Shown here piece by piece: positions 10,998 through 19,661 of a stretch of DNA of 64,000 nucleotides. The stretch lies in NCBI RefSeq assembly GCF_055900595.2, contig NZ_CM148325.1; one strand, 5' to 3'. Each line of letters opens with the position of its first letter. Within the stretch, counting starts at the first letter, position 1. Position numbers and translations under genes: made by a program. Under the pieces are notes generated by a model, which saw only the letters and a list, made by a program, of their open reading frames with translations, was not told the DNA's origin and made no database searches.

Positions 10998-11999
10998 ATG
11001 AGTAAAGTTGGTATTAACGGTTTTGGTCGTATCGGTCGACTGGTGTTGCGTCGATTACTTGAAGTCAAAAGTAACATAGACATTGTCGCTATTAATGATC
11101 TCACTTCCCCAAAAATTCTCGCCTACCTGCTGAAACATGATTCAAACTACGGACCGTTCCCCTGGAGCGTTGATTTTACGGAAGATTCACTTATCGTTGA
11201 TGGAAAAAGTATCGCGGTTTACGCCGAAAAAGAGGCTAAAAATATTCCATGGAAAGCGAAAGGCGCAGAAATCATTGTCGAATGTACTGGCTTTTATACC
11301 TCCGCCGAGAAATCGCAGGCGCACCTTGATGCTGGTGCGAAGAAGGTGTTGATTTCCGCCCCTGCCGGTGAAATGAAAACCATCGTTTATAACGTCAATG
11401 ACGACACACTGGATAGCAACGACACCATTGTTTCCGTGGCGTCATGCACCACTAACTGTCTTGCACCGATGGCCAAAGCCTTGCACGACAGTTTCGGAAT
11501 AGAAGTCGGCACGATGACGACCATTCATGCCTATACTGGCACCCAGTCACTGGTGGATGGCCCGCGAGGTAAAGATCTACGCGCTTCACGTGCAGCGGCA
11601 GAAAATATCATTCCCCACACTACAGGCGCGGCAAAAGCCATTGGTCTGGTGATCCCAGAACTGAGCGGCAAACTGAAAGGTCATGCGCAACGCGTACCCG
11701 TGAAAACAGGTTCGGTGACTGAACTGGTGTCTATTCTTGGAAAAAAAGTGACTGCCGAAGAGGTGAACAACGCGCTTAAAAACGCGACAAACAATAACGA
11801 GTCATTTGGTTATACCGATGAAGAAATAGTCTCTTCTGATATCATTGGCAGCCATTTCGGGTCGGTGTTTGATGCCACGCAAACCGAAATTACCACCGTG
11901 GGCGATTTACAGCTGGTGAAAACGGTCGCCTGGTATGATAACGAATATGGCTTCGTCACGCAGCTTATTCGCACCCTCGAAAAATTCGCTAAACTCTGA
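10998..11999 (+). CDS. gapC: Glyceraldehyde-3-phosphate dehydrogenase C, intact reading frame
   Basis: 333 aa uninterrupted ORF with GAPDH hallmarks (NGFGRIGR Rossmann motif, catalytic [10 protein letters not shown]). Confidence 0.9.
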
Positions 12000-12040: not shown

Positions 12041-13480
12041 TTACGACTGTAAATAAACCACCTGGGTCTGCAGGTATTCATGCAAGCCATGTTTGCCATC
12101 TGCGCCGCCAATACCGGATTTACGCCATCCGGCGTGGAATCCTTGCATAGCTTCGAAGTTTTCACGGTTGATGTAAGTTTCACCAAACTTCAGCCCTTTA
12201 ATAGCTTTCATCGCGACGTTCAGATTTTGGGTATAGAGTGATGAGGTCAGGCCGTAATCACTGTCATTAGCCATTGCGATAGCCTCTTCCAGCGTGTCAA
12301 ATGCGACCACTGGCAGCACCGGGCCAAAGGTTTCCTCGTGCATGATCGACATTTCCTGACGAACATCCAGTAGCAATGTCGGCGGATAATAATATCCTTT
12401 CCCCTCTACTGCCTTGCCCCCCAACGCCACTCTCGCCCCCTCTTCGACTGCGCGCGCCACTTTTTGCTCGACCCTTTCCAGCGCCGCGGCGTTAATCAAC
12501 GGCCCCATCGCAATGTCGTTGCGTTCAGCGGGGTTACCAAATTGAACCGCCTGCATCGCTTCACCCAGCCGATTGACGAAATGATCATAAATGCCTTTCT
12601 GTACATAAACACGTTCTGCACAGTTACACACTTGCCCACTATTAATGACGCGTGAATCAACGATGGCTTTGACTGCCAGTTCAAGATCGGCATCGTCCAT
12701 TACGATAGCTGGTGCTTTACCACCCAATTCCAGACACACTTTTGTGATATTTTTTGCTGCAGTCGCCATGATCTTTTCACCTGCAGAGACGCTGCCTGTC
12801 ATACTGACCATTGCGACCTTTGGGTTACCCGCCAGTTCTTGCCCAACAGTTTCACCACGCCCCAGCACAAGGTTAAACACACCGCGTGGAAGGCCTATTT
12901 CATCGACAATTTTGGCAAAAGCAATCGCATTGTTTGGCGTAAATTCACTGGGTTTAATGACGATGGTATTACCGGTCAAAAGAGCGGGAGCCATTTTGCG
13001 GGCAATGAGGAAGAACGGGAAGTTCCACGGCAGAATGCCGGTAGTCACGCCAAGCGCACGTTTAAAGAGAAGAATATTTTCTCCTGGACGATCGCTTTGA
13101 ATAATCTCGCCTTCATAACGCCGTGCCCACTCCGCCATGTAATCGATATAGTCCGCAGTAAAAGCCACTTCGACTTCAGCCAGCTGCTGGATCTTGCCCC
13201 CTTCTTCAACAATCAGCGCACTGATTTCACCGGCGCGTTCGCGGATCCCGGCGGAGATTTTGCACAACCAACTGGCGCGTTCAATGGCAGGCAATGCTTC
13301 CCATTCTGGCTGCGCGCGCTCTGCGGCGTCGATTGCTTTGCGAGCATCTTCAGCCTGACCATCGGGAATGCGGGAAATCACCGCCTCTGTTGCGGGGTTA
13401 ACCACATAAATCCATGCGTCTCCACGCCAGGTAACAAACTGTCCATCGATATACATAGGATGTTGAACGGGTACTGACAT
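12041..13480 (-). CDS. aldA: Lactaldehyde dehydrogenase AldA
   Basis: 479 aa aldehyde dehydrogenase family with catalytic Cys/Glu motifs (GQVCNCAERVYVQ, ELGGKAP). Confidence 0.93.
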   Translation of the reverse strand: MSVPVQHPMYIDGQFVTWRGDAWIYVVNPATEAVISRIPDGQAEDARKAIDAAERAQPEWEALPAIERASWLCKISAGIRERAGEISALIVEEGGKIQQLAEVEVAFTADYIDYMAEWARRYEGEIIQSDRPGENILLFKRALGVTTGILPWNFPFFLIARKMAPALLTGNTIVIKPSEFTPNNAIAFAKIVDEIGLPRGVFNLVLGRGETVGQELAGNPKVAMVSMTGSVSAGEKIMATAAKNITKVCLELGGKAPAIVMDDADLELAVKAIVDSRVINSGQVCNCAERVYVQKGIYDHFVNRLGEAMQAVQFGNPAERNDIAMGPLINAAALERVEQKVARAVEEGARVALGGKAVEGKGYYYPPTLLLDVRQEMSIMHEETFGPVLPVVAFDTLEEAIAMANDSDYGLTSSLYTQNLNVAMKAIKGLKFGETYINRENFEAMQGFHAGWRKSGIGGADGKHGLHEYLQTQVVYLQS

Positions 13481-13673: not shown

Positions 13674-14474
13674 TCAACGTAGCGAACGACTTTCCATCGC
13701 CTCGATGAGCACCGCATCGTGTTTCAGCGTTTGCCATGCCTGGATGACTTCTGCCGGAAAATCAACGTGAACGATAAAATCTCGCCCGCGTGGACCGTAG
13801 CCATCGCTATCATCGCGTAAACGTGGCAGCTCGCCAGTGAGTAGTGAGAGATAACGCTCAACCGCCCATAATCCTTCTAACTGGTTAATAAAGATTACAC
13901 TGTCTTCGTTATTTCCCAACTGAGGAACGAATCCGGGATAACTTAACCAACGAGGTGCGTCTGGATTGTCACCGGTAATACGACGGAACGTCGCCATTGT
14001 GCGCCGCTGCATGGTGGGGTCCTGAACAACGATAGCCGTATGAACTCTTTCTACGGCCTGATTCAATAGCGCGATGCTAAAGCGTGCGTTTTCACCGCAG
14101 TTTGTTGACTGGTCTTCAATCCAGATTTTTTCATGCGGAATGTGCCAGAACTGATGAGCGATATCCGCCAGGATGGTAGCTTCTGCTCTGCCAGTGGTGC
14201 GGATAGTGTTGTAGTGCGGATGCTGTGCGATGGCGCTATACAAAAAAGTTGTCGAGTGACCGATACCACCACTAATCAGTAGAGGAATTTGCTGATCGCG
14301 GGCAATCTTACATGCCGCATCGATAGTCGGCATAACCGCATTGCCTGCAAGGATCACGCAATCGGCCTGATACGGCACCTCACCGGAGAAATCATCCTGC
14401 GCCAGCCACTGACCGATAACATTTATGGCATCTATGGTTGCCGGCGAAAGCGTCGGAAACGGGGTAATGTTCAT
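13674..14474 (-). CDS. ydcF: DUF218 (YdcF) family protein, SAM-binding
   Basis: 266 aa ORF matching YdcF family, conserved neighbour of aldA. Confidence 0.88.
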
Positions 14475-14863
14475 GGTTCCTCCTTATCGTTCCCTTAAGA
14501 ATACTGCGTGAGATAATAATGAGAAGCGGAGCACTCTGAAAGGAAGATGATGCTTTTTCTATCGCGCCATCGCGAACCAGACACTGGTTTTAGTCATACT
14601 GTATTTGCGGAGAAACTGTTGATAAAACATCAATAACATAATGTTGTATCATTTTTAAATGATAGATAATCTGGTGTGATATTTATATAATATTCATTCT
14701 TATATTTCTCAATCAAGGGGAACATTTGCAACACGCTCATTAGTGGTAATTCCTTAAATTTTAATTGAATAATATCTGCTCTCAGCTATAAACTACTATC
14801 TGTCTATGGTGCCGAATTACCATTTTTATTCATCAACACAATGCTATATGTCGAGAAACATAC

Positions 14864-15358
14864 ATGGAAAAAATATTTCAACTTTTAGAAACCGCCTGGC
14901 CTGCCGTAAAAGCAACAGGACTTACAGGTTGCGTAACCGCTCCAGAAACTGAAGATAACCTTCTTTTATTTGAGGATAAATACGCGACACATATTCCAAA
15001 AGACTATCGGCAGTTATTATCTCATTTTGGCGCATGTCATTTTGCCGATCCTCAAATTTATACTTTGAATGATCTGGACAGATATTACCCTCTATTTTTT
15101 CAACAATGGGAAGAGTATAAAAAAGAATATCCATCATTGAACAACATTGATCCTTTTCCTGTTGGCAGTTTTGGCGACGGGAGTGTCGCTTTTCTTGACC
15201 GCAACAGCCTAAAAATTTATATTCTAATTCATGATTTTGGTATATTTACCGATGATGTTGGTGATTTCCCTTGTGAGTTATGCTTTGAAAATTTTGGTGA
15301 GTTAGTGGAAATGCAAGTTGAAATGATTCTTTATTTACAGCAATATCATGTATCATGA
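14864..15358 (+). CDS. SUKH / SMI1-KNR4 family protein (candidate orphan immunity protein of a polymorphic-toxin system)
   Basis: 164 aa; motifs IPKDYRQLLSHFGA and PFPVGSFGDGSVAFLDRNSLKIYILIHDFG resemble the SMI1/KNR4 fold; lies in an AT-rich insert between ydcF and hrpA. Confidence 0.55.
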   Translation: MEKIFQLLETAWPAVKATGLTGCVTAPETEDNLLLFEDKYATHIPKDYRQLLSHFGACHFADPQIYTLNDLDRYYPLFFQQWEEYKKEYPSLNNIDPFPVGSFGDGSVAFLDRNSLKIYILIHDFGIFTDDVGDFPCELCFENFGELVEMQVEMILYLQQYHVS

Positions 15359-15395
15359 ATAATAAAATTATCACTCATGTTCTTACTGAAAAAAA

Positions 15396-15656
15396 GTGAA
15401 TTCTATAGCAGAGAAATATTGTAAAATGTATAATCTTAATAGCTCGTTAGCATACCAAATCACGGCTATTAAATTTCTTCCTGATGGTATGAAATCATTC
15501 GGCCTTGATGTTCCATTATGGATGGTCGTCAGAGATGTTAACGGTTGGGATGATATGGAAATTACGATTTTTATTTGTGACAAAAATAGTGAAGTTCTTT
15601 GTTGCAGTAATATTTGGTATCCAGTATATCGTCCTCATCAAGCAGATTTGTTATAA
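15396..15656 (+). CDS. Hypothetical small protein (86 codons, GTG start) in AT-rich insert
   Basis: ORF-track frame MNSIAEKYCKMYNLNSSLAYQITAIKFLPDGMKSF...; no recognisable family; codon usage atypical; could be a second immunity-type gene or non-coding. Confidence 0.3.
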   Translation: MNSIAEKYCKMYNLNSSLAYQITAIKFLPDGMKSFGLDVPLWMVVRDVNGWDDMEITIFICDKNSEVLCCSNIWYPVYRPHQADLL

Positions 15657-15701
15657 GCACGTAAGGAGTACCGCCCTTGCTATTTTTCAGAATTCATAAA
15701 G

Positions 15702-15734
15702 AAAAAACCCGGCGCTAAATGCTTACCGGGTTTT
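15702..15734. terminator. Bidirectional intrinsic terminator downstream of hrpA (and of the insert ORFs)
   Basis: AAAAAACCCGG-cgctaaatgcttac-CCGGGTTTT, A-tract / hairpin / T-tract. Confidence 0.65.
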
Positions 15735-15758
15735 AGATTTATCAGGCAAATAGCAGCG

Positions 15759-18700
15759 TTAACCGCTAATCTGCTCCATCGCCTGCAAAATACGCTTATC
15801 TGAAATCGGATAAGGCGTACCAAGTTGTTGAGCGAAGTAACTAACGCGCAGTTCTTCTATCATCCAACGGATCTCTTTCACATCCTCATCCTCACGACGT
15901 GCGGGCGGCAGTTTGTTGATCCATTGCTGCCACGCCTGCTGGACGTTTTCAACTTTCAGCATCTGAGCACGGTCACGGTGCGGGTCAACCGCCAGTTTTT
16001 CCAGACGCTTTTCAATCGCCTGCAAATAACGCAGCGTGTCGCCCAGCCGTTTGAAGCCATTACCAGTGACAAAACCGCGATACACCAGCCCACCCATCTG
16101 CGCTTTAATGTCAGAAAGCCCCAGCGCCATGGTCATATCCACCCGTCCTTTCAGGCGTTTGTTGATATTGAACACTGCCGTAAGGATTTGCTCGACCTGC
16201 TTCGCAATATCCACCACCGTGTCGTTCAGTTCAGCGCGGACTTTTTCATGAAGCGCAGCAAAGCCTTCTTCCGTCCAGACCGGGCCGCCCGCCTCATCAA
16301 TCAATTTATCAACACCGCAGGAGATGCAGTCGTCAATGAGATCCAGCACTTTACCGTACGGGTTAAAGTAGAGACCCAGCTTCGCTTTGTTCGGCAGTTT
16401 CTCATGCAGATATTTAATTGGCGACGGAATGTTCAGCAACAGCAAGCGACGCAAACCACGCCACATAGCCTGCTGTTGTTCCTGCGGGTTATCAAAAAGC
16501 TTAATCGCTACGCTGTCACGCTCATCCACCAGCGCAGGCCAGGCCTTCACTTTGTAGTTGCCACGTTTCTGCTCGTAGTGATCCGGTAAATTACCGAAGC
16601 TCCAGATATGTAACCCGCTTTGCTCAATACCATCATCGGCAACGGCGGAAAGCGTTTCCTGCACTTTGCCTTTCAGGGCGTCTTTCAGATCCTGTAATGA
16701 GCGCCCTTCTTTTAGCTTCTTATTTTTGTCGTCCACCACGCGGAAGGTGATTTTCAGGTGATCGGGCACCTGCTCCCAGTGCCAGTCTTCGCGGTCAACG
16801 GTAACGCCGGTCATCCGCCGTAGCTCGCGCTCAAGGCTGTCGAGCAACGGCAGTTCCAGCGGCGTGACGCGACCTAAAAACGCTTCGGCGTAGTTTGGCG
16901 CGGGCACAAAATTACGCCGTACCGGTTTCGGCAACGATTTGATTAGAGCAATCACCAGTTCACGGCGCAGGCCGGGGATCTGCCATTCAAACCCGCTTTC
17001 CTCAACCTGGTTAAGTAACGGCAGCGGAATATGCACGGTCACACCGTCAGCATCCGCCCCCGGCTCAAACTGATAGCTTAAACGCAGCTTGAGATTACCC
17101 TGATGCCAAAAGTTCGGGTAATCCAGCTTGCTGATTTTTTCCGCCCCTTCTTTGATCAACATGCTCTTTTCAAAGTTGAGCAAATCAGGCGTTTCGCGGC
17201 TGACTTTTTTCCACCAACTATCAAAGTGACGTGCAGAGATCACATCATGGCTGATGCGCTGGTCGTAAAACTCAAACAACGTTTCGTCATCCACCAGAAT
17301 ATCGCGGCGACGTGATTTGTGTTCCAGTTCTTCCACTTCTGCCCGTAGTTTCAGGTTTTCACGGAAGAATGCGTGACGCGTCTGCCAGTCACCTTCCACC
17401 AGCGCGTGGCGAATAAAAAGTTCACGACACAGCGCAGGATCAATCTGGCTGTAGTTGACCTTACGCGCAGCAACAATCGGCAACCCGTAAACGGTGACTT
17501 TTTCAGTTGCCATCACCGCGCCCTGCGCCCGTTCCCAGTGCGGTTCGCTGTAGGAGCGTTTAATCAAATGCTGGGCAACTGGCTCTACCCATTCCGGATC
17601 GATACGTGCCGCAATGCGCCCCCACAGGCGGCTGGTTTCTACCAGTTCCGCCACCATTGCCCATTTCGGCGGCTTCTTGAATAAACCAGAACCGGGGAAG
17701 ATGGAGAAACGCGCGTTACGTGCGCCGGTATATTCCTGTTTATCGGCATCTTTCATGCCGATATGCGAAAGCAAACCTGTCAGTAAGGCGATGTGAATTT
17801 CGCGATACTCCGCCGGTTCGCTGTTAACCGGAATGCCAAGTTCTTTCACCACCTGGCGCAACTGGGTGTAGATATCCTGCCATTCGCGCACGCGCAGATA
17901 GTTAAGGTAATCGGTACGGCACAGGCGACGGAAGGCGTTTGAAGAGAGCGCCTTTTGCTGCTCGCCGAGATAATTCCACAGATTTACAAACGCCAGGAAG
18001 TCGGATTCTTTATCGTGAAAGCGACGATGTTTTTCGTCCGATGCCTGCTGCTTGTCCATTGGCCGCTCACGCGGGTCCTGAATAGAGAGCGCGGAAGTGA
18101 TAATCATCGCCTCACGCACGCAGCCATGTTTCTGCGCTTCCAGCACCATTCGCGCCAGACGAGGATCGACTGGCAGTTGCGAGAGCTGGCGACCGAGCGG
18201 CGTCAGTTTATAGGCGCTGGCCTGTTCATCAGTGGTGATCGCGCCCAGCTCTTCGAGCAGACGCACGCCATCCTGGATATTGCGTTTATCCGGCGCTTCT
18301 ACAAACGGGAACGCAGCGATATCGCCCAGCCCCAGCGCGGTCATCTGCAAAATAACCGAGGCCAGGTTGGTACGCAGAATCTCCGGATCGGTAAATTCCG
18401 GGCGCGAGAGGAAATCGTCTTCGGAATAAAGACGAATGCAGATCCCTTCTGACACACGACCACAGCGGCCTTTACGCTGATTAGCTGAAGCCTGCGAAAT
18501 GGGCTCAATCGGCAGACGCTGCACTTTGGTGCGATAGCTGTAGCGGCTGATACGCGCCGTACCTGGGTCGATAACGTATTTAATCCCCGGCACAGTCAGC
18601 GAGGTTTCCGCGACGTTAGTCGCCAGCACAATGCGCCGTCCGCTGTGCGACTGGAAGACGCGGTTCTGCTCGCTGTTCGAAAGCCGTGCATAAAGCGGAA

Positions 18701-19661
18701 GAATTTCCGTATGGCGTAAGTTCAGCTTGTTCAGCGCATCGGCGGTATCGCGAATTTCTCGCTCGCCGCTCATAAAAATCAGAATGTCGCCAGGGCTTTC
18801 CTGGCTCAGTTCGTCTACGGCATCGAAAATCGCCTGCAACTGGTCGCGCTCGGTGTCATCAGCTTCTTCAACAATCGGGCGATAGCGCACCTCCACCGGA
18901 TAGGTACGACCGGAGACTTCGATAATCGGCGCATTATTAAAGTGGCGCGAAAAGCGTTCCGGGTCGATAGTCGCGGAAGTGATAATGATTTTTAGGTCAG
19001 GACGCCGCGGCAGCAACTCTTTCAAATAACCGAGGAGAAAATCGATATTCAGGCTGCGTTCGTGCGCTTCGTCAATAATGATGGTGTCGTACTGCATCAG
19101 CAGGCGGTCTTGCTGGATCTCCGCCAGCAGGATACCGTCGGTCATCAGCTTGACCATCGTGTTATCACTTACGTGATCGCTGAAACGCACTTTATACCCG
19201 ATGCAACCGCCCGGCTCCGTTTTCAGCTCTTCCGCAATACGGTTCGCCACCGTTCGTGCCGCCAGACGACGCGGCTGGGTGTGGCCGATCAGCCCTTTAA
19301 TCCCGCGGCCCAGTTCCATACAGATTTTCGGTAACTGAGTCGTTTTACCGGAACCCGTTTCCCCGGCGACGATCACCACCTGGTGATCACGGATTGCTTC
19401 GAGAATGTCCTGCTTTTTCTGACTAACCGGCAAATTGTCCGGATAAGTGATTTCCGGTCGTGCTGCTTCACGCAGCAGGACTTTCCCTGCCGCCTGGTCA
19501 ATCTCTTTCGCCATCTCCTGGAAAATGGCCTGTTGTGCATCAGGATTTTTAACCTTCTTCACGCCGTGCAGACGGCGGGAAAAACGCAGTCTGTCACGCA
19601 GCATCAGCGAATCCAACCGTTGCTGCAAGGCCGTAAAGGTCAATTTTTGTTGTTCTGTCAT
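15759..19661 (-). CDS. hrpA: ATP-dependent RNA helicase HrpA (DEAH-box)
   Basis: 1300 aa; Walker A GETGSGKTTQ, DEAH box, HA2/OB domains. Confidence 0.95.
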   Translation of the reverse strand: MTEQQKLTFTALQQRLDSLMLRDRLRFSRRLHGVKKVKNPDAQQAIFQEMAKEIDQAAGKVLLREAARPEITYPDNLPVSQKKQDILEAIRDHQVVIVAGETGSGKTTQLPKICMELGRGIKGLIGHTQPRRLAARTVANRIAEELKTEPGGCIGYKVRFSDHVSDNTMVKLMTDGILLAEIQQDRLLMQYDTIIIDEAHERSLNIDFLLGYLKELLPRRPDLKIIITSATIDPERFSRHFNNAPIIEVSGRTYPVEVRYRPIVEEADDTERDQLQAIFDAVDELSQESPGDILIFMSGEREIRDTADALNKLNLRHTEILPLYARLSNSEQNRVFQSHSGRRIVLATNVAETSLTVPGIKYVIDPGTARISRYSYRTKVQRLPIEPISQASANQRKGRCGRVSEGICIRLYSEDDFLSRPEFTDPEILRTNLASVILQMTALGLGDIAAFPFVEAPDKRNIQDGVRLLEELGAITTDEQASAYKLTPLGRQLSQLPVDPRLARMVLEAQKHGCVREAMIITSALSIQDPRERPMDKQQASDEKHRRFHDKESDFLAFVNLWNYLGEQQKALSSNAFRRLCRTDYLNYLRVREWQDIYTQLRQVVKELGIPVNSEPAEYREIHIALLTGLLSHIGMKDADKQEYTGARNARFSIFPGSGLFKKPPKWAMVAELVETSRLWGRIAARIDPEWVEPVAQHLIKRSYSEPHWERAQGAVMATEKVTVYGLPIVAARKVNYSQIDPALCRELFIRHALVEGDWQTRHAFFRENLKLRAEVEELEHKSRRRDILVDDETLFEFYDQRISHDVISARHFDSWWKKVSRETPDLLNFEKSMLIKEGAEKISKLDYPNFWHQGNLKLRLSYQFEPGADADGVTVHIPLPLLNQVEESGFEWQIPGLRRELVIALIKSLPKPVRRNFVPAPNYAEAFLGRVTPLELPLLDSLERELRRMTGVTVDREDWHWEQVPDHLKITFRVVDDKNKKLKEGRSLQDLKDALKGKVQETLSAVADDGIEQSGLHIWSFGNLPDHYEQKRGNYKVKAWPALVDERDSVAIKLFDNPQEQQQAMWRGLRRLLLLNIPSPIKYLHEKLPNKAKLGLYFNPYGKVLDLIDDCISCGVDKLIDEAGGPVWTEEGFAALHEKVRAELNDTVVDIAKQVEQILTAVFNINKRLKGRVDMTMALGLSDIKAQMGGLVYRGFVTGNGFKRLGDTLRYLQAIEKRLEKLAVDPHRDRAQMLKVENVQQAWQQWINKLPPARREDEDVKEIRWMIEELRVSYFAQQLGTPYPISDKRILQAMEQISG

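Follow-up and report, generated by a model that had tools for sequence, protein, structure and literature searches.

A frameshifted accessory gene of a very rare, uncharacterised protein family beside a SUKH gene in E. coli

What does a short reading frame encode when it resembles no recognisable family, starts with GTG and lies just behind an immunity-type gene in a strain-specific insert? The question is raised by an 86-codon frame (15396-15656, + strand) in a 64,000-nt stretch of an E. coli chromosome (RefSeq assembly GCF_055900595.2, contig NZ_CM148325.1), hereafter the window. A sequence-only reading had proposed a separate small gene, either an additional immunity gene or a toxin remnant, with its coding status clouded by an overlapping minus-strand frame. 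The frame is present, as is the minus-strand overlap (15383-15583, 66 aa; 15516-15641, 41 aa), but instead of being an ORF in its own right it is very probably the distal 86% (codons 15-100) of a real 100-codon gene that has been broken by a frameshift. Our overall best explanation, to which we attach a probability of roughly 0.6, is that it represents the frameshifted second cistron of a SUKH cassette whose intact protein is orphan-immunity-like. The finding is modest and largely ordinary: a frameshifted accessory gene of an uncharacterised, very rare family.

The frame occupies a variable site between ydcF (13674-14474, − strand), the left flank, and hrpA (15759-19661, − strand), the right flank, which is convergent with the genes of the insert; aldA (12041-13480, − strand) and gapC (10998-11999) complete the chromosomal setting. 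In most E. coli the ydcF-hrpA gap measures only ~271 bp. BLAST comparison of such an empty site (locus L013) with the window gave common flanks at 14475-14544 and ~15677/15695-15756, between which an AT-rich cargo segment without assigned strand (14545-15676) has been swapped in for 138 nt of the empty intergenic region. This ~1.1-kb insert has 34% GC, compared with 51-54% in the flanking genes, is found in 185 of 5426 complete E. coli genomes and contains a SUKH/SMI1-KNR4 gene together with the 86-codon frame.

The SUKH gene (14864-15358, + strand, 164 aa) is the first of the two-gene operon. Its earlier description as SUKH-like is borne out by Pfam matches to SUKH_6 (E=3.3e-7) and SMI1_KNR4 (E=1.1e-5) and agrees with its PGAP name, 'SMI1/KNR4 family protein'; its pN/pS across alleles is 0.30-0.39, and a word-based homolog search with it returned E. 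coli sequences only. The best match to a sigma-70-like promoter upstream of it is TAGATA-17-TATAAT (14663-14691, + strand), a candidate drawn from a region in which the count of promoter matches shows no excess over shuffled expectation. At the distal end, a terminator-like hairpin followed by UAUUUUU (15661-15687, + strand) begins 5 nt past the stop codon of the 86-codon frame, and beyond it stands the bidirectional terminator noticed in the sequence-only reading, an A6-hairpin-U4 element at ~15704-15733 that folds on both strands and is common with the convergent hrpA. This second element belongs to the conserved flank, being kept in genomes without the insert; the hairpins downstream of the frame have a + strand z of −3.0. 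An Rfam scan of 14400-15800 returned zero RNA families.

On the same strand as the SUKH gene, as claimed, GTG 15396 stands 37 nt past the SUKH stop at 15358. In the original gene it served as codon 15 (Val), the actual start being ATG 15355, 41 nt upstream of the GTG and overlapping the SUKH stop as ATGA. Read from that ATG, the window specifies a 14-codon N-terminal stub, MNNKIITHVLTEKK, which ends at TGA 15397-15399 (stub 15355-15399, + strand) and agrees with the N-termini of intact alleles (MNNKIIAPILTENK or MNNKIITHVLTEKK); close homologs are 99-100 aa long and begin MNNKII.... We aligned the window with the main (L003), N3 (L011), GF43 (L017) and metagenome (L016) alleles, and the alignments place the frameshift at a run of seven A residues (A7; 15389-15395, + strand); in its place the main allele, which is intact, has GAAAACAAAG, and the likewise intact metagenome allele has A8. 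At this point the main allele reads ACTGAAAACAAAGTGAAT and the window ACTGAAAA-AAAGTGAAT. The metagenome allele, which is nearest to the window, continues in frame through GAA AAA AAA GTG (EKKV), whereas the window runs from ATG 15355 to GAA AAA AAG TGA and carries the other 86 codons in the −1 frame. Those 86 codons hold nearly the whole conserved domain, with helix 1 (from residue 12 in the full gene), four strands and the GWDD and CC motifs.

Where the insert is present, the small gene is usually whole. Of the 185 complete genomes with the insert, 177 have it as one uninterrupted ORF of 99-100 codons: 175 have the main allele (identity of 99% or more, with a strain labelled ST69 among them; intact, 99 aa), one the GF43 allele (intact, 99 aa) and one the N3 allele (intact, 100 aa), and the remaining 8 carry the frameshifted A7 allele of the window type. 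Among 60 matches listed, the 56 to the main allele were all at 100% identity. The A7 run is identical in the 8 complete genomes, which come from three independent sources, and in all six further loci read, so it is real and not a sequencing error. In the window lineage, a change of AAC to AAA (N13K) likely first created an A8 run; one A would then have been lost, splitting the gene into the 14-codon stub and the 86-codon remainder. A further difference lies upstream, where the main allele reads TGTGGAGTCTCATG and the window TATCATGTATCATG; the main allele has a GGAG Shine-Dalgarno sequence 4 nt before the ATG, and the window lineage lacks it.

The public records of the small gene itself reflect this history. 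In intact genomes PGAP annotates CDSs of 99-100 aa that overlap the SUKH stop; the one in the main allele is 99 aa long (WP_001060290.1), and its ATG has 4 nt in common with that stop (ATGA). In genomes identical to the window, PGAP instead calls a 76-aa CDS (15426-15656, + strand; WP_241232115.1), a product found on 391 contigs and indexed in 703 blocks of a public collection. Its start, ATG 15426, arose by a K25M change in the window lineage, and the product would be without helix 1, including the invariant Y22; by beginning at a lineage-specific ATG and omitting the conserved first helix, the record conceals the frameshift. Both RefSeq entries are hypothetical proteins with neither function nor family annotation. 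This corrects the gene model: the 76-aa 'hypothetical protein' and the 86-codon GTG frame each represent part of a single frameshifted 100-codon gene.

Comparative conservation of the frame and structure prediction, the checks suggested along with the earlier reading, both favour coding. Besides the 177 of 185 alleles that are intact, the + frame has a pN/pS of 0.38 across the four E. coli alleles, compared with 0.63-1.19 for the remaining five frames. The value resembles that of the SUKH gene; the signal is consistent but weak because these alleles differ at just 30 sites. An exhaustive HMMER search of 1.84 billion representatives gave 14 matches, about 10 of them distant (35-46% identity) and aligned over residues 8-96. 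Across the distant homologs Y22, W56, D61 and D67 are invariant and G64-W65-D66, I72, D76 and C83 near-invariant, which gives a conserved core of W-x4-D-x2-GWDD ... I-x-D ... CC. An AlphaFold2 model built on a 12-sequence alignment is confident (pLDDT 84.8, pTM 0.77), with residues 1-11 as coil, a helix at 12-25 and four strands.

The modelled fold, in which one N-terminal helix packs on a four-stranded sheet, appears PepSY/cystatin-like. It has this alpha plus four-stranded beta arrangement in common with cystatins and with PepSY domains (PF03413; YpeB, YpmB, the FoxB periplasmic domain and thermolysin-type propeptides). Structural alignments with PepSY proteins, however, reach only 7-16% identity, the small protein has its own GWDD...CC motif, and a Pfam scan of the 86-, 99- and 100-aa forms gave no PepSY match at E<=10. 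PepSY domains are typically extracytoplasmic, whereas inspection of the small protein reveals no evident signal peptide, membrane segment or anchor, and it appears to be cytoplasmic. The idea of a DNA mimic, which came from fold matches to Ugi and HI1450, was dropped in view of the near-neutral pI of the E. coli protein (6.0-7.7).

The initial impression that the sequence has no recognisable family holds throughout. Scans of Pfam, NCBIfam, PHROGs and PADLOC gave no family assignment, two matches (AVO1 UBL, E=0.035; phrog_20312, E=0.002) being dismissed as noise. A PDB sequence search with the family profile gave 0 matches, and Foldseek of the model against PDB and the viral BFVD gave none at E<=0.001. 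GTDB species representatives yielded a single spurious 16-residue match, the IMG/VR viral scan zero matches and the plasmid scan one match only, to a mislabelled chromosome. What is now defined is an unnamed small protein family with a GWDD...CC core and a PepSY/cystatin-like predicted fold, and with roughly a dozen representatives outside E. coli in a search space of billions of proteins.

Outside E. coli, members of the family are mostly solitary. All homologs either stand alone, at 86-120 aa, or have the domain as their N-terminal part, and in no case does it form the C-terminal end of a large protein; all 14 HMMER matches are 45-222 aa long with the domain N-terminal. In seven of nine distant-homolog contexts the neighbours are unremarkable housekeeping or regulatory genes (AraC/GyrI-like, two-component system, ribosome hibernation factor, FMN reductase), and none of the nine has a recognisable toxin beside the family member. 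One homolog is fused to DUF3781, a domain of unknown function. Another, P0019, immediately follows a CdiI_ImmP gene (8e-19) in a group of small genes of unknown kind.

Several features of these relatives can be recorded alongside. The locus of P0019 (L010 411-2228), with the CdiI_ImmP gene, the family member, a 237-aa unknown and a 92-aa protein, has the look of an immunity island; the 92-aa protein resembles the family in the N-terminal helix only (hhalign probability 36%). In a low-GC homolog (L019 106-769; P0013) the family gene overlaps a 113-aa gene of no recognised family by 8 nt, and a near-identical metagenome contig has both genes fused into a single protein of 222 aa. The 113-aa gene, which follows or is fused to P0012/P0013, gave a single-sequence AF2 pLDDT of 47, too low for the model to be of use. 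Several low-GC homologs end in a basic tail, KLTPKERRLKR, that is missing in E. coli.

What, then, would the intact protein do? An immunity or inhibitor function is our best-supported guess, and a tentative one. The small gene would be the second cistron of a horizontally acquired two-gene cassette, and since its ATG overlaps the SUKH stop in intact alleles, this E. coli branch of the family is probably coupled translationally to the SUKH immunity-type gene. Its product would be a stoichiometric binding or inhibitor protein of orphan-immunity type, kept beside the SUKH protein, and the two together would neutralise incoming toxin from competitors. Bacterial SUKH proteins are proposed immunity proteins that are frequent in mixed arrays (PMC3113570), and polymorphic toxin systems have immunity genes of the SUKH, CdiI and Imm families that occur as orphans or in arrays (PMC3113570, PMC3482391). 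The function is plausible in view of the SUKH coupling, the CdiI_ImmP neighbour, the inhibitor-type fold, the patchy rarity and the AT-rich cargo cassette.

The comparison with known systems cuts both ways. Like orphan immunity genes, the small gene is coupled tightly to another such gene, has one homolog beside CdiI_ImmP, specifies an apparently cytoplasmic protein and belongs to an AT-rich, strain-variable cassette without a nearby toxin, none having been found in the 1.1-kb insert or adjoining it, where the flanks are ydcF and hrpA. Unlike the described Imm families, its own family has no Pfam match to them, no toxin neighbour and mostly isolated genes. Linkage to immunity genes was found in two of ~10 contexts (the ATGA overlap with the SUKH gene, and P0019 after CdiI_ImmP), and because seven of the nine distant contexts are ordinary, the immunity reading rests on these two associations. 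Of the earlier proposal of an additional immunity gene, the part that stood is that the insert has a second gene, whose coding the comparison supports; the immunity role is plausible from its context.

It is quite possible, at something short of even odds, that the protein is real and has another role, as a PepSY-like regulator, an inhibitor of an endogenous enzyme or an unrelated accessory protein that stands beside SUKH by chance. Most of the distant homologs speak for this, being single genes among housekeeping or regulatory ones, as do the DUF3781 fusion and the family's want of any toxin association in the contexts examined. Against it, the 4-nt overlap with SUKH, the CdiI_ImmP neighbour, a distribution that is patchy and very sparse, and the AT-rich cargo site are typical of conflict-system genes. 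Were the orphan-immunity reading true, the family would extend the known set of interbacterial-conflict genes by one module and ydcF-hrpA would stand out as a hotspot for orphan immunity genes; if not, the gene is a strain-specific accessory gene of an ordinary sort, in decay.

Whatever the role of the intact protein, the frameshift and the missing GGAG make it most likely that the copy in the window has recently become a pseudogene, or at best gives weak expression of an N-terminally truncated form. That the frameshift inactivates the gene is what we infer from reading the sequence; the 86-codon frame is fully open and could be reached by reinitiation. In that event, ribosomes would end the stub at TGA 15397-15399 and reinitiate at GTG 15396 (GTGA) to make a functional 86-aa protein, which we consider somewhat unlikely. 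The overlap can be read directly, and a chain of SUKH-(ATGA)-stub-(GTGA)-86 codons would keep translational coupling. The product would retain almost the whole conserved domain, the residues modelled as coil (1-11) being among those lost, and the shortest natural homolog, P0018, begins just 2-3 residues before the position of V15. The frame is, moreover, open and unchanged in every A7 copy examined, in a lineage that is widespread. Yet the GTG, itself a weaker start, has no Shine-Dalgarno sequence before it, the 86-aa form would lose the first three residues of helix 1, and the A7 copies are identical through clonality, not selection. The changes specific to the window lineage in the 5' part (two nonsynonymous, one synonymous) are consistent with relaxed constraint, in tiny numbers.

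A more elaborate proposal combines these elements: a new, extremely rare immunity family of PepSY/cystatin-like fold acting with SUKH, which in the window lineage would stay partly active through reinitiation at GTGA or slippage at A7 (A_AAA_AAG), making its expression tunable. We regard this combination as unlikely.

Recoding as such, by −1 ribosomal frameshifting at A_AAA_AAG (15390-15396) or by RNA polymerase slippage on A7, would restore the full-length MNNKIITHVLTEKK-VNSIAEK... and is very unlikely. The A7 run plus G15396 does form the heptamer in 0-frame phase, the 0-frame codons being GAA AAA AAG TGA, and a −1 slip yields exactly the protein of the A8 allele. A_AAA_AAG is among the most efficient motifs in E. 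coli given stimulators, whereas unstimulated heptamers reach at most ~10 times the 0.055% background (PMC4066793). The site resembles those of dnaX and of the IS3 family, where −1 frameshifting is programmed, in its identical heptamer, its phase and its immediate 0-frame stop, and differs from them in having neither an upstream SD-like stimulator (no GGAG-like element 10-14 nt before the heptamer) nor a downstream hairpin or pseudoknot (15397-15470 folds no more stably than shuffled sequence, z=+0.39). The motif also follows automatically once one A is deleted from GAAAAAAAAG; the site stems from a recent deletion and is missing from the other, single-frame alleles. The two-frame layout is no conserved feature, since 177 of the 185 E. 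coli alleles lack the frameshift; like all distant homologs, they encode the protein in one frame.

That the frame is an orphan toxin tip, left over from the C-terminal toxin domain of a polymorphic toxin that has decayed, is scarcely credible. Such remnants do tend to persist near immunity genes, but the intact alleles have their own ATG and SD, the homologs are short stand-alone proteins with the domain N-terminal, and none of the 14 HMMER matches lies in a large protein or in the C-terminal domain of a large secreted toxin; the toxin-remnant half of the original proposal therefore falls. In NZ_CP030768 an IS1 element splits the SUKH gene and the small gene remains intact and identical to the main allele. 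A toxin gene should not stay intact once its antitoxin is lost; because of this, and because distant homologs are solitary, a type II toxin-antitoxin pair with SUKH as antitoxin and the small protein as toxin is likewise unlikely. Scarcely more credible is a chance ORF, or a real gene in the minus-strand frame 15383-15583: an antisense ORF of 66-86 codons does occur in several alleles, but protein homologs exist for the + frame only, the minus frames have pN/pS of 0.63-0.88 and variable ends, and when the 342-nt tail was shuffled 2000 times, an ORF of at least 86 codons arose in only 7 cases.

The site that holds the cassette is itself a hotspot for cargo, and E. coli genomes show it in at least four states (window 14475-15758; L002, L013, L014). 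It may be empty (271 bp) or hold SUKH plus the small gene, a 285-aa DUF7021/DUF2262 gene, or three minus-strand genes of 125, 149 and 112 aa without Pfam match. A literature search found nothing on DUF3781, DUF2262 or the ydcF-hrpA site. Traces of one state appear within another. An incomplete PGAP pseudo-CDS in the window (14590-14667, − strand) is the C-terminal remnant of a minus-strand gene whose counterpart is intact as the 125-aa gene of the three-gene variant (L014), with 172 nt in common. A 52-nt remnant of the 3' end of the small gene (window 15609-15660) lies inside the DUF2262-type insert (L002 3246-3297, 90% identity), so both cargo types would go back to a common arrangement through deletion or insertion. 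In the metagenome contig L016 (791 nt) the window-like A8 allele breaks off after codon 74 and the sequence continues as an internal part of the DUF2262 gene, a candidate rearrangement or assembly chimera.

The cassette and its surroundings vary in other ways. IS1 has inserted in some strains (L012 498-1195; L024 1874-2571), either inside the SUKH gene (NZ_CP030768) or between the small gene and hrpA (CM128594). To the left, the window has the gapC-like gene for a type I GAPDH as an uninterrupted ORF of 333 codons; in K-12 this gene is a pseudogene. To the right, hrpA of the window strain differs from that of an ST69-type strain at 283 of 3903 nt (7.3%), with a maximum of 58 of 300 nt at 16359-16658; divergence so unusually high for an E. 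coli core gene suggests recombination adjoining the hotspot.
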